64,000 nucleotides of DNA from Bispira polyomma (taxonomy: Eukaryota). The position numbers and the translations under genes were made by a program. The DNA lies in assembly GCA_965649765.1 (NCBI GenBank), contig OZ287759.1:1860001-1924000 (forward strand). The letters are read 5' to 3'. Of this stretch, positions 10,250-44,805 are shown one piece after another (within the stretch, counting starts at the first letter, position 1; each line of letters begins with the position of its first letter). The notes under the pieces are model-generated. The model did no database searches. It worked only from the letters and a program-made list of their open reading frames with translations, and was not told the DNA's origin.

Positions 10250-10372
10250 CTTTCACTGGCCTCTCACCAATGTGGGACAGTTTGTCGGGTACTTGGCAGG
10301 ACACTGGTTTATTCCACCATTAAATTTGGCCGTCTTCAAATGACTGAAGCTGTTGAAAGGGACGTAAAACCT
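10250..10372 (+). mobile_element. SINE remnant (3' part); second copy at about 62170-62290
   Basis: 3' end gctgttgaaagggacgtaaaacc matches the tail of the SINE at 19049-19208. Confidence 0.55.
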
Positions 10373-19208: not shown

Positions 19209-20033
19209 AAAGTAGTAGAAGTTTGCCAAAAATCGATAACGTGTAGCTGACTTACGAAATAGATACATAAACACTTGTAGTGTGGTTGTGCTGTTTATTA
19301 GGGAATCCAAGCACTTGACACACTTCAAATAGATCAAACGACTTGTTGACATTTCTACACTGTGTGAATAATAACCTGGGCAGATATCAAAGTTCAAATG
19401 TTCACAACTTTGTCACACACATGGTATGGAAAGTGTAACATCAAAACCATATTCTGTAGCCTCCTTATTGTTGTCAAGTACATTATAGACTATATATTGA
19501 GATGTTGCTATTTTTCTCTGAAACGGAATGTTCCTTTGGTCAGATAAGCATTCTTACCAATAAAAAAAACAGGCTTTGTGGAGGTCATAGAATAATAGAC
19601 TAACGTGTTCTTATCAAAAACAGAAATTCTGTGGAGGTTGTTTTGGCTAATCTAAAAGGGTGAGTTATAAGTTTATGTCTGAAACCCCTCACATTAGTTT
19701 GAGATCTCATATCAACTGGTTACCCGATATATTAAAAATAAAACAGCTGTGGTGAAAAGCATAATACAATAGGCCTATCTCACAACTGCCTACTACATAC
19801 GGGGAAGTTTACCAGGTATGTGTACTTGCTGCAGGTCAGTGGTTTTCAGTACAATATAGCATGGGTTTCACCAATAATTATGACTACAAATCTTAAAGGC
19901 AAAATCGGGATCTGCATCACATCTGTGGCACACTATAGCAGTTTAACATTAACAATATACACTGTCTCTCAATTGTCTGTTCTAGTGGACAGAAGAAAGA
20001 GACCGAACCTAAAAGCATTAATTACTGCAAGCA

Positions 20034-20231
20034 ATGGAGGCCAGGGATACCTCACCAGAAGTCGATTTGAGTCGGGTGGACTACAGACCGGCCAGTGCCG
20101 AGTATTACCAGGGGGTAATGGGTATTAGTGAGGGACTTTACAGTGACAGAGACACCCTGCCAGCCATGTTCCACACATTTCTGAAGGATCCCCTCATGGT
20201 GATGACTGTGGCTGTGTATGAAGGAAAAGTG
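20034..20231 (+). pseudogene. Host NAT16/histidine N-acetyltransferase-like GNAT, coding exon 1
   Basis: YQGVMGISEGLYSDRDTLPAMFHTFLKDP resembles the NAT16/HisAT V.AIS..IY.G.DYLP..YH.WL.DP motif; ends at a strong phase-0 donor GTG|GTAAGA. Confidence 0.7.
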
Positions 20232-22368
20232 GTAAGAGAAATAGACTGGCCATGATTGGGTAAATTGTTTGTCCATATCAACACAGTAACGTCAAGACAC
20301 AGTAGTTTTCCTTCAGCTTTCAGTCTACTTACCTTCATTTCACAAATCCTAAGCACATTTTGATCACAGTTTCTGCTACAATGCACCAGAACTATGGAAC
20401 ATTCTGCTGCAAAACATGTGTATTGCTCCTACCTTGTCATCGTTTAGAAGCAAACTTAAGATATACTTGTTGCCAAGGCTTTCCCTCCCTAGTTACATAT
20501 TCATTCTGGCATCTCCCAGAATACAACCACCTTCCAGAAAAGGATGTTACAATACCTGAAAAGGATGATGATATACATGCCTTAGAATCCACATTAATGG
20601 AGGTTAAGCGGAAACAAATTGTATTAGATTAGATCAGCAATATTTATCGTTTGGGTTTTTGGGTGCCGATGTTGTTATGTAACACAAACAATGCCGTAAA
20701 TGATACATATTTCACCTTAGATAATATCTATGCAAAAATTTTGATCATATTTTAAAATTAATACAGTTTAATTAATGAATATTAAACCATTTAAAGTCTA
20801 TTCTTACTTGTAAACAAGTTAGGTGTTTACATTTCCTGTTTTGTATGGGCATATTTTGTTTTTAAAAATCTTCTAGGTTCTTGCTAGATATCGACTTATG
20901 CCCTGGTCATACTCGGCATGTTCTGATTTATGTTTACTTTGTATGAGATTTAAGAAAAGAAAATGAAAAAAACAAAAGTAAAAGGGGCACGCAACAAAAA
21001 ATAATGTATGAGATGTTTTACACACATTTTGTACAGAAATTCAACACATTTTGGTAGCCATTTCAACTATGTTTGTTATGTTAGCCAAGTTTTATACACG
21101 TTTCATACAATTCACTTACACATTTCATTCCATTTCGATCTTGTTACCCACATTTTGTTTCAGCTTCGTTTTCATTCCATTTTACCTTCTGTTTGTTCAT
21201 TTTTTAGCGTAATCAAAACAGGAGCTGTGTGTTACCAAGGGTTAAGGCGGCTACGCAAGTTTGAAGTTTGAAGAGATTGGTTTAACTTTTTTTCTAAACT
21301 CAGAAAGTGTTTTAGTTAATCTTATCTTAACTATAAGACTATTCCAAAACATAGGAGCAACATTTCAGGAAACTCTAGATTCAGACATCTTAGTTGGTTT
21401 AAGGCTTTTGTAACGTAAACACATAAACGGGCCGGGAATAAAGTATGCTACTTTTACGAGAGCCATTTCTACTCTGTATATCAACTATGAGGACTTTAAA
21501 AGTACAATTTAGTAAGGTTTTCAGCCATTTTTATGTGTGCAGACAATTCAAAAGGATAATAATATGCTACAAAACTATAAAAACACCCATATAACCATCC
21601 TTGTGTTGTGACGTCACACAATTTGAAAATCTATGTAGAGCGTCATATTTGTAAACAAGTCTCTGAGAGAGTCCTTTCTATTGTGACATAATACGAGTAT
21701 TGATCCAGCATATATCAGCACAAGATATATGTTACACAACTTTATAAAAAATCTATATTATTTCTAATGATTTACATTTTTCAATATGTTTCCTTATTTT
21801 ATAAAAACAAAGAATATAAAACATCTTTCTGTTAAGAAGAGTGTAACTTTAATGTTTTTTCTAAAATAAGCCAGTTTTTGTGCTTTAATTGAAAAACGAA
21901 TTCATTCAAAATAATGCTGATGTTTTCCTTTTTCTAGTCATGTACAATACTTCAGTATTGATCCCTTCTTGGTATATGAATTGTGTCACGTTTGTGAAGC
22001 ATGTACTTTGAAAATATTACCCATCTTAGTTACAATTTTACACACTACTATATGCATTGTATGTCTCAAAATATGTATTAAAATGACACATAAAATATAT
22101 GAATTAGCATATAATTAAAATAGATGTCATGCATTATTATTTCTACCCATGAAAATGTAAATATGTTTTCCATAAATCGAGTTTAAGGCCACAAAGAAAA
22201 AGTGGTGCATTTTCTGAGAAGCTCAAGCACACAAAATGTGGTTATCCGCAATCGTCTTTTGTGTTTACATCACTAAAGCCTTAACACAATCTATATTTTC
22301 TGTCTTGAGGTTACAGAAATGAAATTATCTTCAAACCATGTCTGTTAGTTGAAATGTATTTTCATTAG

Positions 22369-22461: not shown

Positions 22462-22513
22462 GTGAGTATGATATCTATATTATTACTTTTTATTACGCAC
22501 TACACTATGTAAG

Positions 22514-22646
22514 AGTAGTAGTAAGGGGAGTGATTCACGCTGATGATTAGTGCCCAATTTGTGCCCAATCCCATGTACTTGTGCACAAAATGAAAAAAGC
22601 CCGTGACCTTGAGTCTTTTTGCCCTCTTATAGATTTTTTACTTTGA
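22514..22646 (+). repeat. Left terminal inverted repeat (133 bp)
   Basis: Starts AGTAGTAGTAAGGGGAGTG; reverse complement of 44673-44805 with 2 mismatches. Confidence 0.98.
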
Positions 22647-22829
22647 ATGATTACATTATGAATTGTCCTTTCTAATTGTTCTGTCATACCCAACATTATG
22701 GTTTCAGATTTCAAATTACTCTCGCATTCACAACTCAAATTTTGGGAACATCATAAAATACTATTAAACTATGTACATATTTTATTTATTTTTATATATT
22801 ATTATTTTTTTTTTTTTTACTTGCATTTT

Positions 22830-23064: not shown

Positions 23065-23850
23065 CTAACAGATCCCTGTAGACATCATGGTGTCGTTCTC
23101 TGGTAAGCACTTTTCACACACCAACTTTTCTAACAGATCCACGTGATTTTTGCTGACAATACACGTCACCTCCTCTGCAGCCAGGGGCAGTACCTCATAG
23201 ATCTTCTTGTATACCCTCGTCAGCTCACAAAGATTTTTGTACTTCAGGGATATGCCTTTTCTGGTTGGAAACCATTCATTTTCTCCCAGCTCCTGGTTCT
23301 TGCTGTACCAAACTCTGATATTGGTAGTTTGGTAAGGAATGCAAACAGTAGCAAATATATGTTCACCTAAATGCTCTTTGAAATTTACCTGCAAATCTTG
23401 GAACATATCTCTCAGAAATTACTTTATTTTTTCTAAATTATGCACCAGTGCATTGAAGGTTGGCATAGACATATTCAGGTAATTTCCAATACCACCATCC
23501 TTATGAGTATACATTTGAATCCAGACTTTACCCTGTTGACAATGTACCTTTAGATTTCTACCCATTCCCAGATCAAATGGTTTTTCTAATCCCTCAATAA
23601 CACTCTGTTGTGAAATTTTCTCCTGTTTTTTTTCCTCTAGGCTCGACTCAGCTACTTTAACATCTTCTACTTTGTCTTTCTGCATATTGCCCTGAATTGA
23701 CCTTATTTTTTTTATCTCATCTTTTAAAAAATCTTCTGCTGTAGTCAATTTATTTTGATGTAGATTTATTTTAAGTTGAGTCAATTTTCTTTTTTTAATC
23801 TTTTTCTCACCACTCATCTTGCCCTTGTTTTTTATCACCTCCGAATTCAT
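23065..23850 (-). pseudogene. Tandem PC4-like ssDNA-binding/coactivator protein (one in-frame stop)
   Basis: ORFs 23419-23850 and 23065-23406 are in frame across a TAA (KIK*FLRDMFQ). Motifs FDLGMGRNLKV..QGKVWIQM and NIRVWY..PTRKGISL are PC4-like; basic N-terminus. Confidence 0.75.
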
Positions 23851-24542
23851 TTTTTATTGATTTGATTTGAACCAACTATTTCTCTCATTATTATAATCTC
23901 AGCTCATCTATAAATAACAATTACCTCATTTCTTATAACTATATTACATATTATTTATTCTAATTACTTATTTTACAACTAATTACCAATCTAATTAAAT
24001 ATTTATTCTATTAATCACCATCTCACTGAATCAATTATTTATTTTATTGGTCACTGTGGCCTTATTCTATCCATTACTCATTTATCAGTCATATATACCT
24101 TTTTTTCTCTTTCAAATAAATTCTCTCTTGGGAGATTCCCCCCCTCCCCACACACACCCCCATTTTTTCTCTTGATCTTTGTGTAAATATTCTCCCCACT
24201 TTCAACAAGTCTTCCAGTTTTTTGGCTAATATTGGCACACTGATGACACAGTTACATCTATCTGAATCACTCCATTACCATAAACCACTACTCTGACACA
24301 TTATTTAAATTTTGTCATTCTGACTCAACCCTGTTTAATAATTCTGAATATTTGGTCCTTTTTAAAATTTCACCTACTCGTCATTCTCATTACTCAATAT
24401 GTCTCAACTTCTATATTTGGAAACAATGACACATTGTTTGAAATTATGTCATCTATACTTTTTTGGCACTATATAATCCACTGTTAACCTAATTTGGTCA
24501 CTAATAACTAACTTTTTTTAAATTATACAGAAGAGTTTAGAA

Positions 24543-25055: not shown

Positions 25056-25836
25056 TATGTTTTGACTCTATTTTAGTTTTCTACTGATTTTGAAAATGTT
25101 TTTTTTAATTTATGTAAATATTCTTGCTTATATGTATAATTAATACCTAAATGTTTAAGGCTAATAAAATTTGTGAACTTACAAACAATTATTATATCAT
25201 TGCCTGATTTCAGTCTTGATCTTCTATTTACTTATCTCTGTGAGGACAGGTGACAAATTGTGGGAATCTTGCACAAACCAAACATAAAATCATTTACTGT
25301 AAACCATGAAACCTTTTTTTATTGGATATTTTCCTCTTTTTAAAACTTTGAAATAAGAATTTGATTAAAAATACAATAAATGAACACTCTGCATAACTTT
25401 ATTTTCTTTCCACATTTTAAATAAAATATCTCATCTCTTGAACATTTACAATTTTCCAATTTACCTCTTCACACAAAAAAAAAATATTACGGTAATTTGG
25501 CAGAATTAACCTGTTCCTACTTTTTAAGGGGGGGGGGAGGAATTTTTTCTACAAATTTCTACAAAAATGTTTTAGAAATTTATTCAATTACATCATCTGC
25601 TCTATTCTTGGGAAGCTAACAAAAAATCTAATTCATCTTTTCCCCTCTAAAAAATTATTTTCCCTCCAAAAATATCCACCTGAAATTATTTAAACCTAAT
25701 TAACATCTCATGCATAAATTTGAAGAACCTTCATATAAAAAAGACAATTTATTTAGGAAAAAAATTAATTCCAATTTTTTTTTTTCTATGACTTTACTGA
25801 AGCTATTTATTTTGTGAAAAAATACTAGGAAAAAAA

Positions 25837-25986
25837 ATGTCTTTGAAGTGTCAATGGTGTAACAAAGCCTTAGAGGCTTATGTTATGCTCTCTTGTACAC
25901 ACACAACATGTGTAAAATGTTTTGGTGAATGTGAAGCGTGTATATACTGTGGACTACCATTTAATTATGGATTTTTCATCTATCAG
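25837..25986 (+). CDS. RING-HC finger, exon 1 of a predicted spliced RING/Gln-rich gene
   Basis: C-x2-C-x11-C-x-H-x2-C-x2-C-x6-C-x2-C; phase-0 donor CAG|GTTAGT after 25986. Confidence 0.75.
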
Positions 25987-26670
25987 GTTAGTATTTTGGA
26001 AACTATATTCTTCAAAGTTATGCATGAGATTTAAATTAGCTTGAAATAATTTGAGTGTCAAAACATTGTCTTAGAACGCTTTAAATAAACTATATTTCAT
26101 GAACATAAAGCAAAGGGACCTATTTCATTATTCACACTACATAGAAAATTTTTGTATTATAATAAAAAGATTTTATTTTACTAAATTTCTTTGAACAGAA
26201 GCATGCATTATAGGTCTTTTTTCTATCCATCAATAAAAACTATTTTCTCCAAAACAATTCAACTTAAGAAGGCTTCTGTCAATCTCTGTGTTAATGAATT
26301 CACTACCCCAAAGTTATACATACTATCATCTTTAACCATACATTATAAAATAACTTTACTTGTAACTTACTCATAACACCACTGTCCTAAACATAATATA
26401 ATTTGAAATTCAAATAATAGAGGCTGTAGCTGGAGGTAAAAGAATAATATCATATATAAAGAAATTTGGAAACCCAGAACATTTTAATAAGGCATACTAA
26501 TTAAATTTAAAACTCATCTTCCTCTTGTCATATTCTTAATTTACCCAAATTAATTTAGAATTCATCCTCCTCTGTTTCTTTCCTAGATAAAGACCTGGTC
26601 ACCATCCTGTTTGCACCCTTACCTTTATCCCCTTCCTTGTCTACCTTAGGTTTAACCTGAGTTTCAGAAT

Positions 26671-27035
26671 TTACTGGGAGGGCCTTATAAACAATGTGGT
26701 TTCTTCCTCGTCATTTTGTTCAAGATCCCCCATATCAAATGCTGGTACCCTAAACCTAACACCCTGTCCCCTACACCTTTTACATCTAACCAAAATAAAT
26801 ATAATCACTGTGGGAATACCTCCAGCTACAGCCCCTATCGATAAACTTATTTCAATAATGTGTATTGTTTCTCTCTTGTTTTCCTCTGCTTCATCATCAC
26901 CCTCCTGTCCATTCCTCTCGTCTTCCTTCACTTCCACCCTCCCCTCTTCCTTCATTTCCCCCCTGTCCTCTTCCTTCACTTTCACCCTATCCTCCTCCTT
27001 CTCCTCCTCTTCCCCTTCATCCTCACCTGGTTCAT
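26671..27035 (-). CDS. Type I membrane protein A, last exon (acidic stalk, TM helix, cytoplasmic tail)
   Basis: Acceptor tattctatattgtag, phase 1. Glu-rich stalk, TM IIEISLSIGAVAGGIPTVIIFILV, stop-transfer RCKRCR. Confidence 0.65.
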
Positions 27036-27087
27036 CTACAATATAGAATACATATACCACCTATTAATATTTTTTGACTCTATTTAG

Positions 27088-27909
27088 CAACCAGCATGGG
27101 TGATCCCCATTACTGCCCAGCAACCGGAACAGCAGTCTCAGCGACACCTTCAACTCTTACTACCTCCTCGCCAGCAGCCACAACAACAGGCTGTTCACCC
27201 TCAACAGCAGCACCTAAAACAGGCTGATCAGTCTCAACAACCTCGTCAACCTCAACAGCCACACCTACAACAGGCTGATCAGCCTCAACAACAGGCTCTT
27301 CACCCTCAACAGCAGCACCTACAACAGGCTGATCAGTTTCAACAACCTCGTCAACCTCAACAGCAGCACCTACAACAGGCTGATCAGCCTCAACAACAGG
27401 CTCTTCACCCTCAACAGCAGCACCTACAACAGGCTGATCAGTCTCAACAACCTCGTCAACCTCAACAGCAGCACCTACAACAGGCTGATCAGCCTCAACA
27501 ACAGGCTCTTCACCCTCAACAGCAGCACCTACAACAGGCTATTAGGTCTCAACAGCTGCCACAACATCAGGCTGGACAGCCTCAACAGCAGCACCTACAA
27601 CAGGCTATTCGGTCTCAACAGCTGCCACAACATCAAGCTGATCAGTCTCAACAGTAGCTCCTACAACAGGCTCTTTGGCCTCAACAGCTGCCACAACATC
27701 AGGCTGATCAGCCTCAACAGCAGCTCCTACAACAGGCTCAGCATCCTCAACTACATGACCTACAACAGGCTGAGTACCAATTTCAAGAGTTACCTCTACT
27801 CAGTCTTCAAGATTTAGATGATTTTGAAGATTTTCTGAGAGGGGAGACAATGAATTCCTCTATGGAGGTTAATGTTGACTCCTCTAGTGAGGATGAAGTT
27901 TACTACTGA
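27088..27909 (+). pseudogene. Gln-rich repeat + acidic tail, exon 2 of the RING gene (one CAG>TAG stop)
   Basis: Phase-0 acceptor tttttgactctatttag. Frame-preserving 105-nt and 66-nt tandem units; continues past the TAG at 27655 to LSLQDLDDFEDFL...DSSSEDEVYY*. Confidence 0.7.
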
Positions 27910-28320: not shown

Positions 28321-28425
28321 TATTTTTATTTGATTTGTTTTCACAATAACTACACCACCTCCTCAAACAAATAATTCTACCACCACCACCTTAAAGATTT
28401 CTACATCTTAACTAGCTTATAATAC

Positions 28426-28727
28426 CATTTGTCAATTCAGTACATCCTTTGTCAGCTCAGGTATGGGATAATAGGTACAGTCAACTTGGCTACGGACAGT
28501 CTGGAGCACCATTTTAGGAATATTTTCCTTTAAAAGGAAAGTGTCTATCTGAGTGATCTTTCTCTCGTATATAATCAAAATACTGATTTATCATCCGAGA
28601 TTTTGTAAATGTTTGCATTTGTCACAAGCCTGCAATACAGCTTTCCCCCCCTCAGAAAACAACATTCCTGTGCTTCCCCCAACCCCATCCAACAAACTAA
28701 AATAGTGCTCAAAATTAAACACCTCAT
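28426..28727 (-). pseudogene. Type I membrane protein A, signal peptide + Cys-capped ectodomain exon (frameshifted; not in the ORF track)
   Basis: MRCLILSTILVCWMGLGEA|QECCFLRGGKLYCRLV..., then after a frameshift LIIYERKITQIDTFLLKENIPKMVLQTVRSQVDCTYYPIPELTKDVLN. A strong acceptor tttttttgtttgtag lies just upstream of the ATG. Confidence 0.6.
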
Positions 28728-29260
28728 ATTTATCACCTACAAACAAAAAAGATATCTATCAGATATGGATATAGTCATTTGAGAGACAAAACAAATAATC
28801 TCTCATCCCGTTTTACAACGAGGTCATGAATAAAAAGAATAAGCTAACTACTTGATTTGCTCGGGGCTAAACTTCACCCGTCTGCTGAGAAATGTTTCCT
28901 AGAAATACCCATAAGATGCAACAACATTCAAAATTAAACCACCATTTAATTCTAAAAACCATAGAAATGCAAGAAATAGACTAATTTTACAGTAGAATTT
29001 CGTTTATAGTAACTGGACGAATTGTCTGTCCCTGATCGAATAAGGTGTCCGTGCAAGTTGCCTGTTCCGTTTTTCCGAATTAGGTGCCCGCCCGAATCTT
29101 GTGGACTGTCTTACCACCTCCGAGTCATATGGCCCCTCCGAATTGTATAATTTAAACAATAATTGTCCTTCCTTGAATATTACTCTTGTTACTGTTTTAC
29201 CTGAATCGAATATCCTCAAATCTTATGAACCATTTCATATCACAATTGTCAATAATTACT

Positions 29261-29487
29261 GCTTGTGTTTATAATTCGATTGCCTGACATAAATTGGACA
29301 CCATATAATAAATGTGTCATAACTTCAAATTAAATAACTTTATTGACCTAACAATACTGTACTTCCTTGAATATTGGTACTGTAATTGTTTTATATGAAA
29401 CTCGTGGTCCATTTTCTACCTAGATTATTATTTAAAATTTGACAGTCGATTTACAACTGGCGGACGAATTATAACCAGAGGCAGTAC
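29261..29487. repeat. ~220-bp direct repeat, copy 1 (copy 2 at 31835-32045)
   Basis: Shared blocks cataacttcaaattaa, tattgacctaacaata.tgtacttccttgaatatt and cgaattataaccagaggcagtac. Confidence 0.9.
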
Positions 29488-29880: not shown

Positions 29881-30980
29881 TTATTGAAGGGACAGACTAT
29901 CAAATGATCCGAAGGTTGTATCTAAATCTACTTCTATATCTATGTCTCCTCCATTCACATTATCATAACTTTTATAGATATTTTCTTCAACTTCCTCTTG
30001 GTGGTTGTGTAAATGTTGACATTGAGGTTTTTCATACCTATTACAAGAAAGAAATTATTAAAACTATTTTTCTGAAATATTTCTGTGATTAAAAAATTGG
30101 TTTTATATTTTAAATATTAAAAAAATAATTAATTAATATAACTAATATACCAATCACTGTCATTTTCGAAGAATTCAATCTCTCTGGAAGCTGTATATAT
30201 GGGATTAGGTTCCATTTCAAAATCTTCCAATATTAGGTTGTTTGGTGGACTGTTGGAGCTTGCATGTTGTTTTTTACAGTTGCAAATAACTACTGTTATT
30301 CCAAAAATAAAACTCAGTAGAGTACCGATTACAGCTATAATGATAGCTATATCATTAGATATTCCAGTATTACCCTTTGGAGTGATGACAACATCGACTG
30401 TAAAGTCACTGACTGAGCTTATTTCATTTTCTACATCTGCTATGGTAGGGGAGGTAATTTCTGATACATAATTGGAAGTAGTCAGTTCTGGTACTGTATA
30501 TTTAACTGTGTGCACTAGTACTTTTGATGCTCGAAATCTCAGCGGTACTTGAGTAGAAATCTCAGTACTTAACTCAATTTTTGTAACCTCGATAATGGAG
30601 TTGGTGGTCAAGGATGAGGTGGTGCTTTTCAATCCAACAGTGGTCAAAGATGAGGTAGTGGTTTTCAATGCGACACACATGTTGGTGATAATTTCAATAT
30701 CTTTAGGAATCTGATTAAGAATATCACAATCAAATTCTCTCATGGAAATAAATGAAATCCAATATATCTTCGGAAAACTATGAAGAATAACTTGGATATC
30801 CATAAGTTTAACATCCTCAAAATATACCCTTTCAACTAGAGTATTTCTCCCTTCAAATTTCGGGTTATTCACACTCCTACAATTCACTAAAGTTAACCGA
30901 CAAGTACACCTGTAATCACACATTTCTATTGACAGGAATGATATTATACTCAAAAGCAATAGAATCTTGAAGTGAGTCAT
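29881..30980 (-). CDS. Type I membrane glycoprotein B, two exons (30980-30151 + 30037-29881, 328 aa), apparently intact
   Basis: Signal peptide, LRRNT-like CDYRCTCRLTLVNC, Ser/Thr-rich stalk, TM IAIIIAVIGTLLSFIFGITVVI. A 113-nt phase-2 GT-AG intron restores W-YEKPQ...ENIYKSYDNV...SLSLQ*. Confidence 0.8.
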
Positions 30981-31695
30981 TTTAATAGAAATTATTTTAA
31001 AATTTGTTAATTCAATGTCCTATTATATACCACTAGTTCACAGAAATTTATATGTAACTGTTCTCTCCAGTACCCACAATCAAAACTGATTCATTTCTAC
31101 AAACTCTCTATTTCTCAAGTTCTGGATCTTCTATCTCTTGCATAAATAAACATAGCCGCCAAACATAATATCATTAATCTCCTTATAATTGTCACTTTTA
31201 TTGCTCTCTCTGTTTTGGATACAATCTTAACTGTTTTATTACCTAAACAATTCAGTTGAAGTAGATGAATATATAGAAACTGACTTTTCAGTTTGGAACT
31301 AAGAGTATGTTTCCATACAGACGATTGTTTTTTATATTATTTTTTTAGGAGATTTGTAATGGCTAGTTTTTTTTGTTTTTGTTTTTTTTTTTTTTTTAAC
31401 TAGACCGAATAATGAATCCCTATTTAGTGAGATTCCTTGCTGTTATTTTGAAGGCTGAATCATGAAAAGGGACAGAACGGCTTCCATAAGGAAAATGTTG
31501 TAAATCAAAATTGGCATATATAGAGGTAGAATCTGCTAAAAATAAATACACCCCCTCATTCCTTATATATGATATAGTTGCCGATTTTGACTTATTCCAT
31601 GCCAACGAGGTACAGATCAATTAATATAAAATAAAAACGAAATCACAATCACTGAAACAACACTGTCGGGCATGTTATGACAATTTAAATTCTTT

Positions 31696-31832
31696 TAATT
31701 ATTTCCTCAACAATTATTTTCTCGTCATTTGTTTCTACGACAATTATTTTCCTCGACATTTGTTTCTACGTCAATTATTTCCTCGACAATTTATTTCATC
31801 GACATTTATTTCTGCGTCAATTATTTTTTCTA
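31696..31832. repeat. 15-bp minisatellite, about 9 copies
   Basis: Alternating caattatttcctcga and catttgtttctacga units. Confidence 0.9.
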
Positions 31833-31834
31833 TT

Positions 31835-32045
31835 GCTTGTGGTCATAAATCGACCGCCTGTTATAAATCGGCCACCATACAATAAATGTTTCATAACTTC
31901 AAATTAATTTAATGTATTGACCTAACAATATTGTACTTCCTTGAATATTATTATTGTAATTGTTTTACTTTAATTCTATGGTCCATTTTGTACCAAGACT
32001 ATCAATAATTACAACTGGCGAGCGAATTATAACCAGAGGCAGTAC
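31835..32045. repeat. ~210-bp direct repeat, copy 2
   Basis: Matches 29261-29487. Confidence 0.9.
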
Positions 32046-32548: not shown

Positions 32549-35500
32549 ATGGAGTGTCCATATTGCCACAAGTTTCTGCAAAGGAAAATACATCTTCAAA
32601 GACATTTAACTATTAGTCGAATTTTGAGGAGTGTTAAAAAAATATTATGTCTATTTTGTCAAAGTCACTTTACTGATGTTAACACTTTAATAAGACATAT
32701 GAATACCTGCATTCCTTATCATTTGTCTCTTAATGTTATAGCCAAGTGTTCTTTTTGTAAGAAGTGTTTCAAAAATACAGATCAAAAAGAAAGCCATGAA
32801 AAAAGATGTTTAAAATGTTATAAATGTGGAAGTATTCTAAAAAGTCTTATAGAAAAGAACATTCATCTTAAAAATTGTAGAGTTGACAATTTGCAACAGA
32901 GGATGGAAAAGATTGTACTCATAAAATCAAACGTGTTAAAATGAATGAAAGGACTCGTGAATCTAGGTTTTGAGAATTTGAAAGATTATGATGATATAGA
33001 GAATTCGGGTAATAAACACCTAAATTTTCTTTGTAAAAAATGTAAAGTTTATTTTGATACAAACTGGGATTTGTATATTCATAATATCTCGTCCCACAAC
33101 CAAACAGGTAGGCAAAGAGTCTTACAAGAACCAGTTCTAGAACCAGATTATGAATTTGAATCTGATGATATGGCAAGAGCATACAATACCAATGTGCAGC
33201 ATATATTAGCTCAACACAACAGAGGGGCTTTAAGGTCAACCTATAATTTTCCAACTAACGATCTTTCTAGGGGAATGTGGGAAATTTCAGATCACTTGAA
33301 TGAAATTTACAATGACCAAAACTACGCCTTTAAAATTAACATATCACTAGGTCTGATTCTCAGAAATACTGGAAATGATGAGTACTGTTATTACGTACCC
33401 TTTTATAATAATCAAGTTTTTCCAGTACCTGTAACCATATCTCGCAGAGCTAATATCAGACATCTCTTTCTCAGAATTAGGCGATTAGATATCCCCGATT
33501 TCATTCGACAACAGAGACCAAACAGTAAATGGGTCCCCGCAATGATTACAAATATAAATTATGTTGTATTTCCTACCTCATATCCTTTAGGTAAATTAAT
33601 TGGTTCTCTCCCAGGTTACATAAAGAATTCTCGAGCAATTAGGGGTTGGATAACAATAGTGGAGGTAATTTTTATGAAGATAATTTATGTGCGTTTAGAG
33701 CTTAGGTGCTACATAAACAAGGAGAAGAAGAAGATTGTGAGAAATTGTTAAACTACCATTATCAATGGTGTGATTTTAATAATAAAGAAGAACATCATTC
33801 CAATTTTTCTGGATTAAATTTGAGTGAACTCGACCTTTTCGAAAATTGTTTTAAATTAAATATCAATGTTTATTCACTAAAACCACAGGGTGTGGTATAA
33901 ACGGTTTATAAATCTATGGAAAATTTTAAACAAACTATGAATCTAAATCTCTATAAAAATCATTTAAGGTATATTCAGGACATTTCTCTATATAGTAAAA
34001 CATATCAATGCATGGAATGTGAAAAAATCTTTAAAAATTAATTTAAACTGAAAACTCATCTTGATAAATGTTTTAACAGAACACGATACATATTCCCAGG
34101 GGGGTTTTACTCTTCACCCAGAAGCATTTTTGATAAGTTAGAGAGTTGTGGAATAATGGTTGATTCACAACGAAGGTTTTATCCTTACTTTGCTGTTTAT
34201 GATTTCGAATCTGTTTTATTGAAGGAACAAGACACCACCTTAGACTGCAAATTAAAATATACTGTTAAACATAAACCCATCAGTGTTTCAGTTTGTTCAA
34301 ATATAGTGCGTTATGAAACTGCCAAATGTTTTATTGAAACGGATGTAGATAAACTTCTCCATAAAATGATCAACTATTTGTGTGAAATAAGTGAGGTAGC
34401 TGCACGATTAGGACAAGAAAGAAGGGAAGATGTATTTGAACAAATTGTTTGTTTGAAAGAGAACAATTTGCAAGGACAATACACTCATAAACACATTGAA
34501 GGTCTAGAAAACGAATTTGAAAGATACATATCACAAATACCAGTTTTAGGATTTAATAGTGGAAAATATGATTTAAATTTGATTAAAGCAGAATTAGCTG
34601 GACACTTGTTTAAAGACGGAGAAAAAGGTAACTATACAATCAAGAGAAACAACAATTACTTATCTCTAAATTCGAGTAAATTTAAATTTTTGGACATTAC
34701 TAACTATATTGCACAAGGAGTTAGTTACTCTAAGTTTCTCAAGTGTTATGAAGTAGAAGAAACCAAAGGTGTTTTTCCTTACGAATGGTTTGATTCAGTA
34801 GAAAAACTTGAATGGACAGAATTACCACCTTATGAGTCATTTTATTCGACATTAAAACACTGTAATGTTCTGGAAACATATGAAAATTATACAATACTAC
34901 AAAAATCATGGAAAGAAAAGAAGATGATAAATTTTAGAGATTACTTACAATGGTACAATAATCTTGATGTAGAACCTTTCTGTACTGCTATAACAAACAT
35001 GCAGGAATATTACTTTAATAAAAGTATTGACATTTTCAAAAATTACATTTCAGTTCCAGGAATTGCTAGAAAAAGCTTTTTGATTCTACAGATGCTAAAT
35101 TTGCTCTATTTGATAAAAACAATAGGGATTTATATGATACCATGAAAAATGGAATTGTAGGGGACCATCTATTATTTTCAGACATTATCATGAGGTTGAC
35201 AAAACTTTTGTTAGAGAAAATAAATCCAAACCAGTCAAACATAGAAGGAAGGGATTCCAATGCATTATATCTCTGGAGAATTTCCCAACCTATGGCTACA
35301 GGAATATATGTACGAAGACATAAAGATAAGGCTTTCAAAGGTGAGGTACCAATGAAATATTTAGAACAATTCATCTGGATAGATTACGTCGCTGAACAAG
35401 AAAATGTTCAAATACAACACGGTTTAAATTCAAGAGGAGAATAACGAATTGGCCCCTACTTAGTAGATAGATATGATGCAAAGAATAAAAGAGTGCTGGA

Positions 35501-37411
35501 ATTTTTAGAATGTTTCCATCATCAACATAGAAACTGTCCCTTAATAGGAAAAAATCAAAATCCAAAATATCATAAAGACAGAGTCATTTCTAAAAAGGGA
35601 AATAGAACGAAAAGACTACATAAAATCTTTAGGATATGACATAGTTGAAATGAGGGAATGTGAGTATCAAGCAGATATTAAGCACAAAACAGAACATATC
35701 AGAGAAAAATATTTATCCAAATTTTATATCAAACACAAAGGTAAGGTTTCAAGCTCTAAACTCATTGAGGCTGTTAAAACAGAAGAAATATTTGGAGCAA
35801 TGGAGGTTGATATAGAAGTGCCTGATTCTTGGAAAGAAACTAACATCTTTTCGAATGGACTCTCCCCAAGTGATTACTTTAGTGAAATGTCCCCTTTCTT
35901 TGCAAGGACAGAGGTACCTTTTGAGGTTGTAGGAGCTCACATGCAGAGACATGCAGAGAATTTTGATTTATCTAAAAAACCTAGAAATTCATTGGTTGGA
36001 GGAATGAAAGCAGAAAGAATTTTTTTAGCCACACCCCTTTTAAAATGGTATTTAGAACATGGTATAGAAATCACTAATATATATCAGGTTGTAGAATATG
36101 TTCCGAAAAATTGTTTTAAAAATTTTAGTCAGAAAATATGTGATAGAAGGAGAGAAGGAGATTTAACCCCTGACAAGGCCCTAATAGCTGAGCTCTCGAA
36201 ACTTTTGGGAAACAGCGGCTTTGGGGGAACAATTATGTCCAAGGAGAGACACCTGGATATTAAATATGTGAAGGGAGAAAGAGAGGCAAGTTTATTAGTC
36301 AATGTCCCTACTTTTAAAAATTTAACTGAATTAGGAAACAGTATGTATGAGGTTGAAAAGTTTAAAAATAGAATTAAACTTGATTTACCAATTCAAATTG
36401 GTTATTTTATTTTACAATATGCCAAGTTAAAACTGTTGTCTTCTTATTATGATTGTCTAGACAGATATATTCCGAGATCAAACTTTGAAATGTTAGAAAC
36501 AGACGCAGATAGTGCCTACTATGCACTTAGTCAAAGTTCTTTTGAAAAAAAGTATTAGACCCTCCTTACTGTCTGAATATCGGAAAGATGTGTGTGGTTT
36601 TTGTTCAAATCTTATCACTCCGAAGTGGTTTCCTAGATTGTGTTGTTCAAAACATATAACTTTCGACAAAAGAACCTTGTCTTTATTTAAAATTGAAAGT
36701 CTTGCTACTAAAGCTATATGCCTGAATTCGAAGACATACATAATGAGAGAACTAAATGAGTCTGATAAAATTTTTTGTAAAGGCATATCAAAGTCAAGTC
36801 TCAATAATGCCATGGAGTTGTTTGAAAGTGTGCTTCATAACCAAATACCACTTTCTTCAACCAATATCGGTTTTAGAGCAAAAAACAATATAATTTTTAC
36901 TTACACACAGGATAGAGCAGGCTTCTCGTACTATTATATCAAAAGGGAGGTTTTGGATGACGGAATTCATACCAAACCATTAAACATGGTTTTGAAACCA
37001 TGGAAACAAAAAATTGTTATAGTTGAAAATGATCTTGACCTACTATCAAACGGTTTTTGCTTTGAGTTGAAAGTCGATGGAAAGACGTATTCAAGTGTTG
37101 AAGAATACTTTCAAGAAAGGGAACATGATTTCAATCCAAATGCAAACACTAGTTTGGAGGAGAATTGGGAGTGGTTTCAAGAAAGAGACAAGATTATGCA
37201 AGAAATTTTAAAATTAAAAGTAAAACAGTGTTGTAATTTTGCTCAGATCTTAAAAAATACTGGGAATTCTTATATATGTTACAATGCTTCAGATAATTTG
37301 TATTGGAATGTGGGTTTACCGCAGAGACTAGTGAAGGTTATAAATAAAGATTCTCATCCAGGTCAAAATCAAATGGGAGAGATATTGATGAAAGTTAGAG
37401 AAACATTATAA
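32549..37411 (+). pseudogene. Protein-primed DNA polymerase B with N-terminal zinc fingers, internal nuclease-like insert and C-terminal NADAR-like domain
   Basis: ZnF CPYC..HLQRH; exonuclease motifs VYDFES, FNSGKYD and YNNLDV; KGVFPYEW; polymerase motifs DSNALY, KLLGNSGFG and ETDADS; end YIKREVLDDGIHTKPL. Multiple stops and frameshifts. Confidence 0.95.
37037..37411 (+). other. NADAR/YbiA-like domain in frame with the pPolB C-terminus
   Basis: LLSN..F..KVDGKTYSSVEEYFQ / W...RDKIM.EILKLKV.Q...F.QILKNTG / YW.VG / PGQNQMGEILMKVRETL follows the NADAR consensus LSNF..DG..Y.S.EHYFQ...KF.Q....L..TG...WG.G...G.N.LG..LM.VR..L. Confidence 0.85.
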
Positions 37412-37413
37412 AA

Positions 37414-38046
37414 ATGTCCATAAAATTTGAAGATCCAGCAAGTATACTTATTCCTGGTTGTAGTAATTCTGGTAAAACCACTTTTCTGTATCAGTTGTTA
37501 AAGTGTAAGGATGCAATGTTCCAGAAACCTGTATGTAAAATACTATACTGCTATTCTCTTTGGCAAAATATTTTTGATAAACTACAAGATGAAATAAATA
37601 TAAAGTTCATTAAGGGTCTGCCTGAGGAGATAGAGATAGATAGCATGAATGACGGGAATCATAATATTTGTATAATAGACGATTTGCAGGAAGAAGTGTC
37701 TGGAAATAAAGTTATTGAAAAATTATACACAACCCTCTGTCATCATTATCACCTCACAGTAATAACTATTTTACAAAATTTATTTTATCAAGGTAAAAGC
37801 TTAAGAACAATCAATTTAAATAGTCATTATTTGATATATATTTAAAAACCCCGAGATATAAATCAAATAATGTATTTAGGAAACCAAACTGGGTTAAAAA
37901 AGACTTTAGAAGAAGCATATAAAAATGCAACAGACGAAAGCTACAATTATCTCTTAGTTGATCTCTCTCTGCACTCATCTACCCAATATAAATTAATAAG
38001 TCATATTTTGCCGAAAGAAGATACTGTGGTATATCTTAGAAAGTAA
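37414..38046 (+). pseudogene. A32/FtsK-like genome packaging ATPase (frameshift near 37840)
   Basis: Walker A GCSNSGKTT, Walker B ICIIDDL, ILQNLF, RTINLNSHY, then FKNPRD and YLLVDL in another frame. Confidence 0.95.
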
Positions 38047-38057
38047 GTAATATAAAT

Positions 38058-38380
38058 ATGAAGGGTAGGCTTAAAATGAATGGAGATTTTGTAAGGTTTT
38101 TATTAAGCACACACATCAAACAAAGATATGCAATAATAAAAACTTTAAATGAAAGACAGACTGGAGTAATTTGGAAATAATTCTCAATATTCTGAGATTG
38201 GTTAATTTGAAAAAGTACAAAACATAAATCAGTAAAACTTTTAGACTTTGGAAGATAATAACCAATAAAAAATGAAAAAGAAAGGAAAAGATTAAACTCC
38301 TAAAAAATAATGACAAAAAAATAATAAGTCTCTTAGATTTGTTTAGGAATGATCTATTAAATTTAATAACAGAATGAATA
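38058..38380 (+). pseudogene. Small basic Polinton ORF downstream of the ATPase, frameshifted
   Basis: MKGRLKMNGDFVRFLLSTHIKQRYAIIKTL...; position typical of Polinton core clusters; broken frame. Confidence 0.45.
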
Positions 38381-38787
38381 AATTTGTGTTGATACCTTAT
38401 GATCGATACAGAATGTTATTAGAATCAAAGGATTAGAGTAGTGGAGATAATCCAAATCCTAAAAATATGATAACTGATACAATATCAAAAGAAACTGAAG
38501 AAAAGAAAACAAAGGAAAATGAAGAAATAGAAAAAAACAATTCTAACAATTTCATTGAAAGTAAAGAGGGAAAAAAAGAGGAATTGGTACAGCATATGAC
38601 AACAGATAAATTAGATGAGAACTTGAAAAACAAGAAAGAACTAAATGAAGAGGTAAACCAAAGGCGTTTGGGACTAAAAGAAATTAAAATACCCCCACCC
38701 GGATTACCACCAAATAAAGACAAAAAGAAAACAGAAAAGGAGAATAGTGCATACAAACACTGGGTAAAAAAATGGGATAAATATTAA
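38374..38787 (+). pseudogene. Conserved small Polinton ORF preceding the integrase (one in-frame stop)
   Basis: MNKFVLIPYDRY start is in frame with ORF 38467; contains PPPGLPP and terminal W..KW..Y. Confidence 0.6.
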
Positions 38788-38835
38788 TATAAAAAGAGAA
38801 AAAAAGCCACAATATGCTTGGATTTTAAATAGACA

Positions 38836-39959
38836 ATGGACGAAAATCAGGAAAAATATCTACACAACCTTTATTACAATCCAAAAAATGCAGTGTCTTA
38901 TAGTGGTTTCAATAAATTTTATAGTTTCATCTAAAAAAACAGTCAGCAAAATTTTTCCAAAAAGGATATTAGGGAATGGTTGGGAAAACAAGATGCTTTT
39001 GTCTTGCATCGACCTGTGATAAGACATTTTAAATGTCCAATTACCATTGCAGTGAGAAAAGATCAACAATGGAATTCAGATACAGCCAATATGAGAAAGT
39101 TTGAAAAAGTCAATAAAGGTTATGGTCATTTTTGTGTAGTGATAGATACTCTAACTAGATATCTGTGGACCTTTCCAATGCAGACACTGACAGGAATAGA
39201 AATGAAAAAAGGTTTTGAAAATTTAATGAAACAGATAAAACCAAAATTTCTATTCACTGACAAAGGCAATGAGTACATGCCTAATATTTAGATTGGTTAA
39301 AGGAAAAAGGAGTTCAACATTTCATGAGCACCAATGAAACAAAGGTGGCGATGGCTGAAAGAGTAATAAAAACAATCAAACTAAAACTGTACCGAAGGAT
39401 GACAGCAGAAAACAATTATAAATGGAATGATGCGCTTGCTAGTCTCACAGAGTCCTACAACAATTCCTTTCATAGAATGATTAAAACCACTCCTTCAAAG
39501 GCGAGGGAAATGGATGATTATGAGTTATGGAAAAATCAATATATTAAAGACTACGATGTGAAAAAACCAAAATTAAAGAAACACAAAAAACCAAGATCAG
39601 AAAAATTACCTTATAAATATAAAATAGGAGATATAGTAAAGGTTGCGTATCTATCCAGACCTTTCGAGAGAGAATATGATGAGAAATATTCTGGTGAAAA
39701 TTTCACCATTGCTGATAGAAATATAAATCAGGGTAAGGCTCAGTACAAATTGAAAGATCTAAATAACGAACTAATATTGGGAAATTTTTTTAATAAGGAA
39801 TTGCAAAAGGTTTATGTTTCTAAAGAGACCACATATCGAATAGAAAAAATTCTGAAAAGTAGAAAAAGAGGGGGTAAAAAGGAATATTTAGTAAGGTGGG
39901 AAAATTATTCCTCAAAATTCGATAGCTGGGTGAAGGAAGAAGACATTCAGGATATATAA
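38836..39959 (+). pseudogene. Retroviral-like (RVE) integrase with C-terminal chromodomain
   Basis: LYYNPKNAVSYSG; DDE triad WNSD, TDKGNEY and AERVIKT; YNNSFHRMIK; chromodomain YRIEKILK..EYLVRWENYSSKFDSWV. Stop and frameshift present. Confidence 0.96.
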
Positions 39960-39997
39960 GTTAAATGTAAAACTATGCAAGGTAAAAATGAACCAAA

Positions 39998-40366
39998 ATG
40001 AATCAATTATACCTACATATTCATTCCACCGATTCGATAAATCTTCACCCACAAAATGATGCATGGGAATTTATTGTAGAAATAGTAGAGGGTATAGAAC
40101 TTGAAGGGAGATGGAAATGTGGTCTAGCAGAAATTAGATATGATAAAGAGGTTGTAGAGGAAATATATGTATATTGTGACATTGTTGATGAAAGTCTGAT
40201 TGAAGATTTTTGTAGACCTATTTTAAGAGTGGTAGATAAAGCTGAACATTACAATCAAATCTACTATAAAAGGGTGAACAGAACAAATCTAGAGAGAATT
40301 AAGGTATATATAACTAGTAAAAACTTAAAAAAACTAAACATTTCAAATACCCCTACGTGGTTTTAA
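39998..40366 (+). CDS. Minor capsid protein (penton, single jelly roll), compact; C-terminus possibly frameshifted
   Basis: LYLHIHSTDS..HPQN..EF...IELEGRWKCGLAEI..IYVYCDIV..PILR..YYKRV..I.VYI. Confidence 0.85.
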   Translation: MNQLYLHIHSTDSINLHPQNDAWEFIVEIVEGIELEGRWKCGLAEIRYDKEVVEEIYVYCDIVDESLIEDFCRPILRVVDKAEHYNQIYYKRVNRTNLERIKVYITSKNLKKLNISNTPTWF

Positions 40367-40387
40367 GTCTTCAAAAAGACAATAACA

Positions 40388-40675
40388 ATGGTTAATTGGA
40401 ATAAGGTTTGTGAAAATATGAGGGAGGGGAAATTGAGAATGGATAGAAAACTATATATGATAGGAGAACAGGCAGGTGGTGGGGGAAATAATGAAAACGA
40501 ACTAGTTAGCATAATTTCTTCTACAGAGCAGCAGGTTGATATGGCTAGATCAGAACTAAAAAAGAAACACAAAAAGGGAAAAGTAGTTAAAAGAAAAATC
40601 AAGAAAGTTACAAAGAGGAAGAAAATAAAACATAGAAAGAAAAAACAAGTTAAAAAAACAAAGAAAAGAAAATAG
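40388..40675 (+). CDS. Basic virion core-like protein with adenain-type glycine site
   Basis: QAGGGG, ISSTEQQVDMARSEL, and a Lys/Arg-rich C-terminus; located between the penton and MCP genes. Confidence 0.65.
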   Translation: MVNWNKVCENMREGKLRMDRKLYMIGEQAGGGGNNENELVSIISSTEQQVDMARSELKKKHKKGKVVKRKIKKVTKRKKIKHRKKKQVKKTKKRK

Positions 40676-40771
40676 TGAATATACCTTAAAAAATATATAC
40701 ATATATAGTGTTAGAGTCAAATAATCTTTAGTTCAATTCTTGCTTTTGAGTGAATAAAAAACAAAATTAAA

Positions 40772-42075
40772 ATGAATGTCTTACAGGAAAAGGTGGCTCT
40801 ATTTCAAAAACTTTTGATAGATCCATCAGTCCATCATATTGATTGGGTTGAATACAGACCAACCGGTCAAATTAAAAGTGGAAATGTAATTGAATTTAAT
40901 GTAACAGGGGATGGGGCGGATTATATAGATTTGAAGAAAAGTAGATTGCATATTTCAATGAAAATTACAAATAGTAATGGAAGTGACTTAGCGTCGACTG
41001 CTATAGTTGGTCCCGTCAATTTAACATTACATTCTCTCTTTCGTCAGGCAGATCTAACTCTACAGCAAATCAATATTTCACCAGGTGTTGGAATTAACTA
41101 TCCATACAAAAGTTTGATAGATGTATGGTTACATAATAGTTTTGTGAGTCAGCAGGGACAGTTGGAAAATGAATTGTTTGCAAATGACACAGCTGATACT
41201 CATAATGATGTAACTGGAGATGACAATATAGGGTTTGCTACTAGGCAAGACAGATGTGCAGCAAGCACAGTAGTGGACTTATGCGGCCCCTTACATGTGG
41301 ATATTGCCGATCAAGATAGACTCATTGTAAACAGAGTGCAGATCAATCTAAAATTATATCCCAGCACTGATAGATTCAGATTAATGACAAAGGATGGAGA
41401 TAAGGAGTATAAGATAGAAATTATTAATGCTGCTTTAAAGATCTGTCAGGTAAAATTAAGTCCCGAGCTCGTACTAGCTCATGCAAAGGCTTTGAAGGTG
41501 GGACCAGCATTATACCCTTTCTGGCAAAGCAAATTTAAGACTTTTACCATACCAAAAGGTAATATGATGTGGAGTGATGATGGAACCTTTCATGGAGAGG
41601 TTCCTAGCAAATTAATTGTGGGTTTTGTTCCAGGAGAAGGTTATAGCGGTAGCTATACTGTAAATCCATTTAAATTTCATCACTACCATTTAAATTACTT
41701 GGAATTCAGTGTAGATGGTGTGCCCGTTCCATGCAGACCACTTCGATCAAATTATAAAGAAGGATATTTGACTAACAGACCTACTTTTACTGGAGGACAA
41801 TACGCAGAAGCATATAATAGCTTGTTTTCTTTGGAGATATGGTGAAAATGAGAACAATCTTATTAAATATACAGATTATCTGAATGGATATTGTCTTTAT
41901 GTGTTTAATATAGACAGTAAATGTGAGTGGTGAACTTAAATCAGAACGTAAAAAGGGTCACACAAGAATAACTGTAAATTTTGGAAAAGCTTTAGTAGAA
42001 AGTGTAACTGCAATATTATATGCTCGTTTCCCATCTATGTTAACTATTGATGAGGCAAGAGTTGTAGAACAATGA
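40772..42075 (+). pseudogene. Major capsid protein (double jelly roll), C-terminal frameshifts
   Basis: WVEYRPT, YIDLKKSRL, PVNLTLHSLF, NYPYKS, NPFKFHHY; ends KGHTRITVNF...TIDEARVVEQ* with the stop overlapping the protease ATG. Confidence 0.93.
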
Positions 42076-42518
42076 ATACTTCTGAAATAAAAGAAAAAAT
42101 GTTGAATGATAGATTCATCAGCAAATATTATGGCGGTGTATATGCAGCAAATGAATTACCAGTAAAATTTCAAAATTTACCTAAAATTCTGATTGTAAAC
42201 ACAAAACCTTACCCTCATGAAGGGGAACATTGGGTAGCAATGTATGTAAGTAAATAAGAGGCGGAATATTTTGATTCTTTAGGTGATTTAGCTCCGAAAA
42301 GTTATGAAAATTTTCTGTTGAGACATCAGGAGAGTTATAGCAAAAATAACGCAAGAGTACAAAGTTACAAGAGCATGTTATGTGGGGAATATTGTCTATA
42401 TTACGCTTACCATAAATTTAGGGGAAAGAGCTATACTGATATCTTAAAGACTTTCGATAAAGATTATAAAGTTAATGATGTGAATATAAAATCATTTTAT
42501 ATTTCGAAATTCATTTAA
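42072..42518 (+). pseudogene. Adenain-like cysteine maturation protease (one in-frame stop)
   Basis: NT...GEHWVA, EYFDSLG, VQ...CGEYC catalytic motifs; both ORF pieces are in the same frame. Confidence 0.95.
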
Positions 42519-42571
42519 AATGCCAATGGTTTAACCTTTTAATCAATAATCATCAAAGTAGATAAATCAAT

Positions 42572-42910: not shown

Positions 42911-43025
42911 ATGAATAAATTATGAATTGTGAGTAATGTTTTGGTGAAATAAAAGAAAATGACTCAATTTTAAAAAAGGATATAAATTGGGAAAGCAACC
43001 ACATTGCAGTCAGAAAGGAAACAAG

Positions 43026-44626: not shown

Positions 44627-44672
44627 AAGAAGGTGGTAGTATGTGGAGGTAGCAAAATCCTAATGGATTCAA

Positions 44673-44805
44673 TCAAAGTAAAAAATCTATAAGAGGGCAA
44701 AAAGACTCAAGGTCACAGGCTTTTTTCATTTTGTACACAAGTACATGGGATTGGGCACAAATTGGGCACTAATCATCAGCGTGAATCACTCCCCTTACTA
44801 CTACT
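44673..44805 (-). repeat. Right terminal inverted repeat (133 bp)
   Basis: Ends CACTCCCCTTACTACTACT, followed by TSD TGTAAG. Confidence 0.98.

Follow-up and report, generated by a model that had tools for sequence, protein, structure and literature searches.

A probably spliced Polinton gene of Bispira polyomma predicted to encode an LRR-like surface protein with conserved tyrosine motifs in its tail

The gene at 29881-30980 (minus strand) of the window, i.e. the whole stretch of 64,000 nucleotides of Bispira polyomma DNA that was analysed, is read here as an accessory gene of a Polinton, and its product is considered likely (probability around 0.55), from comparison of the copies in the genome, to be a spliced type I surface receptor mimic whose phosphorylated acidic tail would recruit host SH2 adaptors. 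The preliminary description had proposed a cell-surface signalling adaptor or immune modulator: the Polinton-borne type I layout, the second exon and the conserved tyrosine sites favoured this proposal, and the intactness of the window copy, which had also been brought forward, had to be given up.

Results and Discussion

Gene structure and predicted protein

The minus-strand open reading frame (30980-30129, 283 aa) ran, in the ORF listing, into a GT..AG interval (30150-30038; 113 nt, 12% GC, stops in all three frames) and closed at its own stop 7 codons into this putative intron. Joining 30151^30037 gave a 328-aa product ending at 29881, with 51 aa beyond W277; exon 1 measures 830 nt, which places the intron in phase 2. 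The coordinates and counts first given for this 113-nt phase-2 intron adding 51 aa were correct, and the junction recurred in subfamilies A-E. Exon 2 of the window gene started one codon short with respect to every other copy examined.

The signal peptide, Cys cap, stalk, transmembrane (TM) helix and juxtamembrane Cys noticed at the outset were borne out by hydropathy and the family alignment, on which the signal peptide and TM calls are based. The hydrophobic N-terminus, with a signal cleavage site that was atypical in the subfamily of the window gene and textbook-like in other subfamilies, was followed by the Cys cap (C21, C25, C27 and C34), the further Cys C85 and C102, a stalk with S/T blocks of 40-45%, a single predicted TM helix (approximately residues 210-232, KD 2.7) and the juxtamembrane C233 and C235; N-glycosylation sequons were absent from the ectodomain. 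Tyrosines of the spliced tail were located at positions 262 (NPIY), 278 (YEKP), 298 (ENIY) and 301 (YDNV). The features of the gene and its element are summarized in Table 1.

Table 1. Features of the membrane protein gene, its neighbours and the host element (positions in the window).
Feature	Position	Strand	Basis
Left TIR, AGTAGTAG terminus; TSD TGTAAG at 22508-22513	22514..22664	+	
Third cassette gene: membrane protein, acidic ectodomain, basic tail; frame interrupted near 26671	26560..27060	-	
Second cassette gene: small secreted LRR-like protein, broken by frameshifts and stops	28410..28727	-	
Exon 2, 157 nt including stop, 51 aa	29881..30037	-	
Conserved C-terminal [ST][ST]Fx[SN][FY] motif	29902..29919	-	
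Third Tyr site (ENIY) and non-conserved YDNV	29956..29985	-	
Y-E-K-P-x-C, best conserved Tyr site	30019..30036	-	
Phase-2 GT-AG intron, 113 nt, position kept in five subfamilies	30038..30150	-	
Exon 1, 830 nt: signal peptide, mini-LRR, stalk, TM helix, proximal tail (predicted)	30151..30980	-	
NPIY motif (Y262)	30195..30206	-	
Predicted TM helix, approximately residues 210-232, then juxtamembrane Cys and basic residues	30285..30353	-	
S/T-rich mucin-like stalk, length differing among copies	30354..30662	-	composition, family alignment
Out-of-frame stalk stretch flanked by private compensating deletions (1 and 8 nt)	30511..30548	-	
Cys-capped mini-LRR ectodomain (predicted), 88 aa, six conserved Cys, three repeat-like strands	30663..30926	-	
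Predicted signal peptide, residues 1-18	30927..30980	-	hydropathy, family alignment
Broken core genes: polymerase fragments with C-terminal NADAR, A32-like ATPase, rve-chromo integrase, capsid-/protease-like frames	32945..42550	+	
Right TIR, 95% complementary; TSD TGTAAG at 44806-44811	44655..44805	-	

Host element

The gene was located in a Polinton of 22.3 kb, with TIRs of 151 nt at 95% complementarity and the TSD TGTAAG on both sides, in agreement with the TIRs with AGT-repeat ends, 6-bp TSD and 13-25 kb given for Mavericks in the accessible text of PMC8097293. Integrase and ATPase were recognized on broken fragments (rve, E 0.003; chromo, E 7e-11; Pox_A32, E 0.002), the rve and Pox_A32 scores falling below the curated Pfam cut-offs. 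The frames which we take to be polymerase, capsid and protease, from motifs and gene order, had the expected size and order and recurred in related loci, with weak or no Pfam matches.

Other frames of the element were a NADAR domain at the end of the last polymerase frame (36497-37411, plus strand, Pfam E 1e-13), a PC4-like pair (23065-23853, minus), a RING finger (25801-26034, plus), a Gln-rich tandem-repeat frame (27088-27909, plus) and a BIR/IAP gene (42963-43619, plus, E 3e-17). High-copy repeats flanked the membrane protein gene (29257-29486 and 31417-32002; depth of 10^4-10^5 in DNA runs vs. approximately 10^2). They constitute a degenerate direct repeat (172 nt, 82%) that was largely common to the close copies, which places them in the element while it was active. 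A segment of about 200 nt (29061-29259) was missing from the five close copies spanning the region. A duplication spaced by about 53 kb (585-10476 and 53849-62394, 88-97% identity) bracketed the element. Outside it, the fragments at 17553-18383 (minus) and 20022-20632 (plus) resemble a LINE endonuclease and N-acetyltransferase exons, respectively.

Conservation of the second exon and its intron

The genome search with exon 1 was run on the 1.035-Gb assembly, and the 137 candidates scored (of 233) gave at least 113 matches. The second exon was present after exon 1 in 24 of 24 distinct loci, with the acceptor AG at the same place in all 24 distinct copies and a phase-2 GT donor in 23, the intron measuring 108-254 nt among these 24 copies. 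The same junction was found in subfamily C (4/4, introns of 184-224 nt), in subfamily D (5/5, introns of 201-223 nt, after the same DSDW and together with two more predicted introns) and in subfamily E (2 of the 4 copies in which the donor was looked up). Among the 30 matches listed in the search with the last exon, none had internal stops and 28 adjoined an exon-1 match.

Substitution patterns indicated that the last exon is under purifying selection: pN was 0.117 vs. a pS of 0.220 (dN/dS 0.49, Fisher p=5e-4, six pairs with no copy shared), and in one of the six pairs, L024/L028, pN equalled pS. The dN/dS values were 0.19-0.35 for the TM segment and tail (nine between-group pairs) and 0.08-0.18 for the LRR domain (three subfamily-B pairs). 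In two of seven pairs, divergence was no higher in the intron than in the last exon (0.83 vs. 0.83 and 0.91 vs. 0.92).

From these genomic comparisons we strongly infer that the second exon is real and that the tail is spliced in vivo; the two pairs in which intron and exon were equally conserved speak against this. Three DNA read runs covered the intron as expected of DNA, without the 30151^30037 joint, and are uninformative on expression. The search for a conserved polyA signal was negative, with ATTAAA/AATAAA in 4 of 7 copies and in none of subfamily B. It is very improbable that the second exon is unused and that the protein stops 7 codons into the “intron” (283 aa), carrying NPIY only: the unspliced frame does close at its own stop and junction reads were not seen, but splice signals, phase and the coding capacity of the last exon were kept over five subfamilies, the last exon is apparently selected, and the read-through (unspliced) tails varied from copy to copy.

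LRR-like head domain

Six Cys, P-x-F and F-P were invariant over 21 aligned head domains, in which the LRRNT Cys cap C-x3/4-C-x-C-x6-C was present with its four Cys invariant (21/21). AlphaFold and Foldseek had been suggested as a check of the ectodomain. AlphaFold2 gave a confident best model (pLDDT 88.6, pTM 0.79; three of five models above 80, two at pLDDT 50-56) consisting of a beta-hairpin cap and three strand/helix turns, but Foldseek returned no matches at E<=0.001, GPIb and TrkC being on top with a best E of only 0.15. VIA-align retrieved mostly LRR proteins with Z under 8 (Z up to 7.1, rmsd 2.5 over 88 residues), and the PDB profile search an LRR-containing NADase chain (E 7e-4) and VLRs (E 0.036-2.2). 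Pfam LRRNT was below the cut-off (E 0.062) and LRR_4 was detected in 7 of 33 members (best E 0.005). The Pfam search with the two exon products of the window gave no result, and there were no matches in the viral fold library at E<=0.001.

A canonical LRRCT cap has four Cys; here the conserved Cys after the repeats were C85 and C102 only. The head is thus predicted to be a minimal Cys-capped LRR without the four-Cys C-terminal cap, the tests being individually weak and all concordant. It resembles GPIb-beta/GPIX, lamprey VLRs, the TrkC LRR and LRIM1 in its Cys-capped N-terminus and predicted short parallel-strand solenoid, and differs from them in its length of only 88 aa, its degenerate repeats and the two Cys in place of a four-Cys LRRCT; the matches to these proteins were below significance or of middling Z.

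Tyrosine motifs of the tail

Motifs were counted in 33 copies (14 of subfamily A, 10 of B, 4 of C and 5 of D), leaving aside L025, in which no donor was found, and L033, whose last exon is broken; the duplicates L012-L015, L017 and L018 were removed before all counts. The four motifs announced for the tail of the window gene (NPIY, YEKP, ENIY and YDNV) were all present, and two of them recurred in most copies, namely YxxPxC directly after the intron (32/33) and NPxY (21/33); YDNV was exclusive to the window copy (1/33). An acidic [FY]ExDS-type stretch ahead of the intron (31/33), an acidic third site [IVT]Y[EDQ][SD][FYV] (27/33) and a C-terminal [ST][ST]Fx[SN][FY] (27/33, all four subfamilies counted) were also conserved. 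NPxY belonged to subfamilies A and B (0/9 in C and D): its Tyr was found without the Asn in subfamily C, was absent from D, and 5 of 8 subfamily-E loci had the whole motif again in the corresponding position. The third site read, by subfamily, DNIYDSF, DCIYESV, EHVYDAV and NLYDEV. In subfamily E it was EHVYDAV, EDVYDAV or NLYDEV, and the post-intron site was YE[KQL]AQC, in which Ala replaces the Pro of YxxP. Conservation was best for YxxPxC and the acidic [IV]-Y-[DE] site, NPxY being present in subfamilies A, B and E and absent from C and D.

YxxP suits Crk, Abl and Nck, NPxY suits PTB domains and YxxPhi suits AP-2. The initial reading of YDNV as a Grb2 site was not sustained by its frequency (YxN in 11/33, YDNV in 1/33), and a Grb2-type YDNV was rejected as a family feature. 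Nor did the literal match of ENIY to Tarp hold, as ENIY was present in 13 of 33 copies and the window site was degraded beside the Tyr; in Tarp, ENIYE is a phosphorylation target of SFK, Abl and Syk, such motifs arising convergently (accessible part of PMC3593179). Nck SH2 sites are TEHI-pY-DSV in A36 and EEHI-pY-DEV in Tir (accessible part of PMC9333988). An A36/Tir-like pattern was present in representatives of subfamilies A, B, C and D and in one of two E copies, and absent from the window copy; it appeared in 0.2-1.1% of shuffled tails, a figure to be read with the pattern having been picked after the data were seen. Two loci of subfamily E (L083 and L088, approximately 5350-5530, minus strand) showed an apparent tandem duplication of the NPxY segment, comparable to bacterial EPIYA effectors.

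Predicted three-gene surface cassette

The secreted neighbour of the membrane protein gene had 102-113 aa in other copies and was present in subfamilies A-D: downstream of the membrane gene in A-C, and nested, with the same orientation, in the last predicted intron of the membrane gene in D (L036, 6448-6786). Its model (pLDDT 92.5) had nearly the strand/helix order of the head domain, and VIA-align gave weak LRR matches (Z up to 6.8 to LRIM1, TLR5 and GPIb). The profiles of head and secreted neighbour were not significantly related (prob 0.7-0.8%; HMM E 0.095); sequence profiles giving no link, paralogy of the two is suggested by similar models and fold lists only. For the secreted neighbour, searches for homologues and among PDB sequences were without result. 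The third gene recurred in related elements, completing the cassette. In another locus (L049), polymerase fragments were inverted-duplicated around the membrane gene, and there were two copies of the secreted gene.

Decay of the window copy and residence of the gene in Polintons

The preliminary description had stressed that the window gene, unlike most neighbours, shows no disabling lesion; as a sign of function this was not confirmed. With respect to six of six close copies (96-97% identical), it carried four private deletions: 3 nt at the start of exon 2, 8 and 1 nt lying 38 nt apart, and 36 nt. Between the 8- and 1-nt deletions about 13 stalk codons are out of frame before the frame is restored; the 3-, 8- and 1-nt differences were also seen in independent DNA runs from other samples. 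Private substitutions were as frequent as in the polymerase region (13 vs. 12 per kb), and the private changes (9 N : 3 S, vs. 21% synonymous sites) did not depart from neutrality (p=0.49); one private substitution degraded the third Tyr site. The core genes had 11 private frameshifts in 9,164 nt, a rate at which a 1-kb gene escapes by chance in about 30% of cases (0.31, stops uncounted). Intactness was therefore rejected as a mark of selection, the changes being neutral and the frameshifts compensating. To judge from these differences, the window copy is neutrally decaying since its insertion, with a frame open by luck, and selection worked on the replicating element lineages, not on the window insertion.

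Polinton genes were found within about 5 kb of 37 of 40 further loci, the other 3 being broken solo pieces, and at least five Polinton subfamilies retain the membrane gene, which occupies one or the other of two element positions. Head-domain identity followed core-gene identity (Spearman 0.78, n=24; the points are non-independent, many coming from one lineage), which argues for a long-term resident of the elements rather than recent cargo. In a second Polinton lineage (L036, L038-L046), the homologue was head-to-head with the ATPase and split into four predicted exons.

A domesticated or captured host gene, with the window copy intact for host service or taken up as recent cargo as in nematode Mavericks, is a most unlikely explanation. 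The introns and the LRRNT-like cap do hint at an ultimate host origin, and intron-bearing cargo is known from nematode Mavericks, with WASP/KRMA as examples of their cargo (accessible part of 10.1101/2022.07.12.499685). Against it, the window gene had the neutral proportions of private changes (9 N : 3 S), the substitution frequency of the polymerase region and four private deletions, the loci lay beside Polinton genes or were broken, and no host-type parent was present among the candidates scored in three genome searches. Domestication of the window copy was largely refuted by the neutral changes and the Polinton context.

Proposed function and alternative explanations

According to the mechanism proposed, an active element would express the protein at the surface of the host cell, where a partner outside the cell would be bound by the stalked LRR-like head. 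The acidic tail would be a substrate of Src/Abl-type host kinases, the YxxP and acidic Y[DE] sites would recruit SH2 adaptors, most likely of the Nck/Crk type, and NPxY, where present, would recycle the protein via endocytosis. As a result, actin or signalling would be remodelled in cells with an active element, and the function would belong to the element lineage while replicating. Against this adaptor reading, the Tyr sites also fit sorting signals working unphosphorylated, NPxY is absent in subfamilies C and D, Ala takes the place of the YxxP Pro in E, and the third site of the window copy is off-pattern.

Such sorting signals are central to the main rival reading, possible though somewhat unlikely, in which the protein is an immune modulator similar to those of adenovirus E3: the head would capture a host receptor or ligand, unphosphorylated Tyr signals (NPxY, YxxPhi, acidic cluster) would lead it to endosomes and the secreted neighbour would be a soluble decoy. 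This would agree with NPxY kept in three subfamilies, with F, V or Y at +3 of the third site (27/33), with the [FY]ExDS-type stretch (31/33) and with the secreted LRR-like neighbour of subfamilies A-D. However, the best site, YxxPxC, has Pro at +3, which does not fit a YxxPhi signal, and the acidic -3 and +1 residues of the third Tyr match kinase/SH2 sites. E3/49K, sorted via YxxPhi and LL by AP-1/AP-2 (accessible part of PMC13437282), has a tail of 19 residues, far exceeded by the 95-aa multi-Tyr tail. The adaptor and E3-like readings are compatible and not exclusive. It is improbable, in turn, that the protein serves superinfection exclusion or receptor interference, by binding or down-regulating the receptor through which related Polintons or other viruses enter, or by repelling virions, to the protection of the cell with the element; its predicted surface location and its retention by at least five subfamilies at two element positions would be expected, but the head is under strong purifying selection (dN/dS 0.08-0.18), not diversifying, and integrated copies decay neutrally, so the host is apparently not keeping them for protection.

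More speculatively, and with considerable doubt, fusogen-less animal Polintons may carry an old spliced three-gene cassette with which actin-driven contacts between cells are built, its products being an LRR adhesin with an A36-like Nck tail, a second membrane protein and a secreted paralogue of the LRR protein; in this way a non-enveloped integrating virus could pass from cell to cell and reach the germ line.

Comparison with known systems

Vaccinia A36, EPEC Tir and orthoreovirus p14 are pathogen membrane proteins with pTyr sites for Nck/Grb2 (accessible part of PMC9333988). The Polinton protein is similar to them in its membrane anchor, its acidic low-complexity tail with several spaced Tyr and its third site, close to EHI-pY-DSV or EHI-pY-DEV; it is non-homologous and differs in its signal peptide, LRR-like head, mucin stalk and spliced tail (all predicted), in the lack of a conserved Grb2-type YxN in the family and in an adaptor binding that is putative. 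A membrane-anchored tail with several conserved acidic Tyr motifs, as in pTyr adaptor mimics, is thus a feature of the family, partly degraded in the window.

The analogy drawn with adenovirus E3 proteins was retained for the cassette layout of membrane and secreted proteins and abandoned as homology, the tail being closer to A36/Tir. E3/49K (CR1-beta) is likewise a type I protein of an accessory cassette in a related, normally non-enveloped lineage, with a Tyr motif in the tail and membrane and soluble products, but has Ig-like CR1 domains and the 19-residue tail, where the Polinton protein has an LRR-like domain and, in its tail of about 95 residues, three conserved Tyr sites (accessible part of PMC13437282). 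Homology to E3 was rejected. The head model was alpha/beta, alternating between strands and helices, and not Ig-like, and no CR1 was found among the best 25 of 40 Pfam families; Adeno_E3_CR2 matched 2 of 33 members (E 0.042), amid generic single-TM matches. MFUS-1, the nematode Maverick fusogen, shares a signal peptide and one TM helix with the Polinton protein and is an 866-aa class III gB-like fusogen (accessible part of 10.1101/2022.07.12.499685). Homology to it was rejected; the Polinton protein (328 aa, 88-aa head) lacks the large gB-like ectodomain.

The adintovirus accessory genes described in the accessible part of PMC8502044 are PLA2X, GasderminX, Cupiennin, Oncoid, IAP and unnamed “Adintoc” groups. 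Described Polinton/adintovirus accessory genes likewise adjoin core modules, the IAP (BIR) gene being also present in the window element, and in the accessible parts of these sources there is no LRR receptor-like or pTyr adaptor gene among them. Nor is such a gene described in the accessible Polinton/Maverick/adintovirus literature (including PMC8502044, PMC8097293, 10.1101/2022.07.12.499685 and 10.64898/2026.10.13.758929); Adintoc supplements, Repbase and subscription papers may hold the family. Tyr-tailed viral receptor mimics are known, and the spliced mini-LRR version in Polintons appears to be new. Intact vertebrate Mavericks were reported as intronless, and animal Polinton particles were unobserved as of PMC8097293, in the accessible part of which their virus nature is argued from capsid genes and selection. 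A surface protein of this kind, conserved and spliced, equipped with phosphotyrosine-type motifs and selected in at least five subfamilies, would be evidence for a Polinton life stage at the cell surface, and the short natural peptides and the 88-aa domain offer a direct means of finding host partners.

Homologues outside the genome

Outside the genome, 35 unnamed matching proteins were found, and a profile search gave 21, partly overlapping. The ten outside clusters looked up and all 21 profile matches came from ENA assemblies, mostly from contigs of 0.1-4 Mb. The single-protein word-index search and the viral and metagenome contig searches gave no result; ESM Atlas scores (0.80-0.83) are leads only. 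The longer outside homologues had the same signal-head-stalk-TM layout. Polinton accessory genes can thus be multi-exon and may escape ORF-based annotation, as suggested by the 35 homologues being unnamed and by many of them ending approximately at intron positions of the family. Many outside homologues stopped just past the LRR domain, approximately where the second Polinton lineage (L036, L038-L046) has its first intron.
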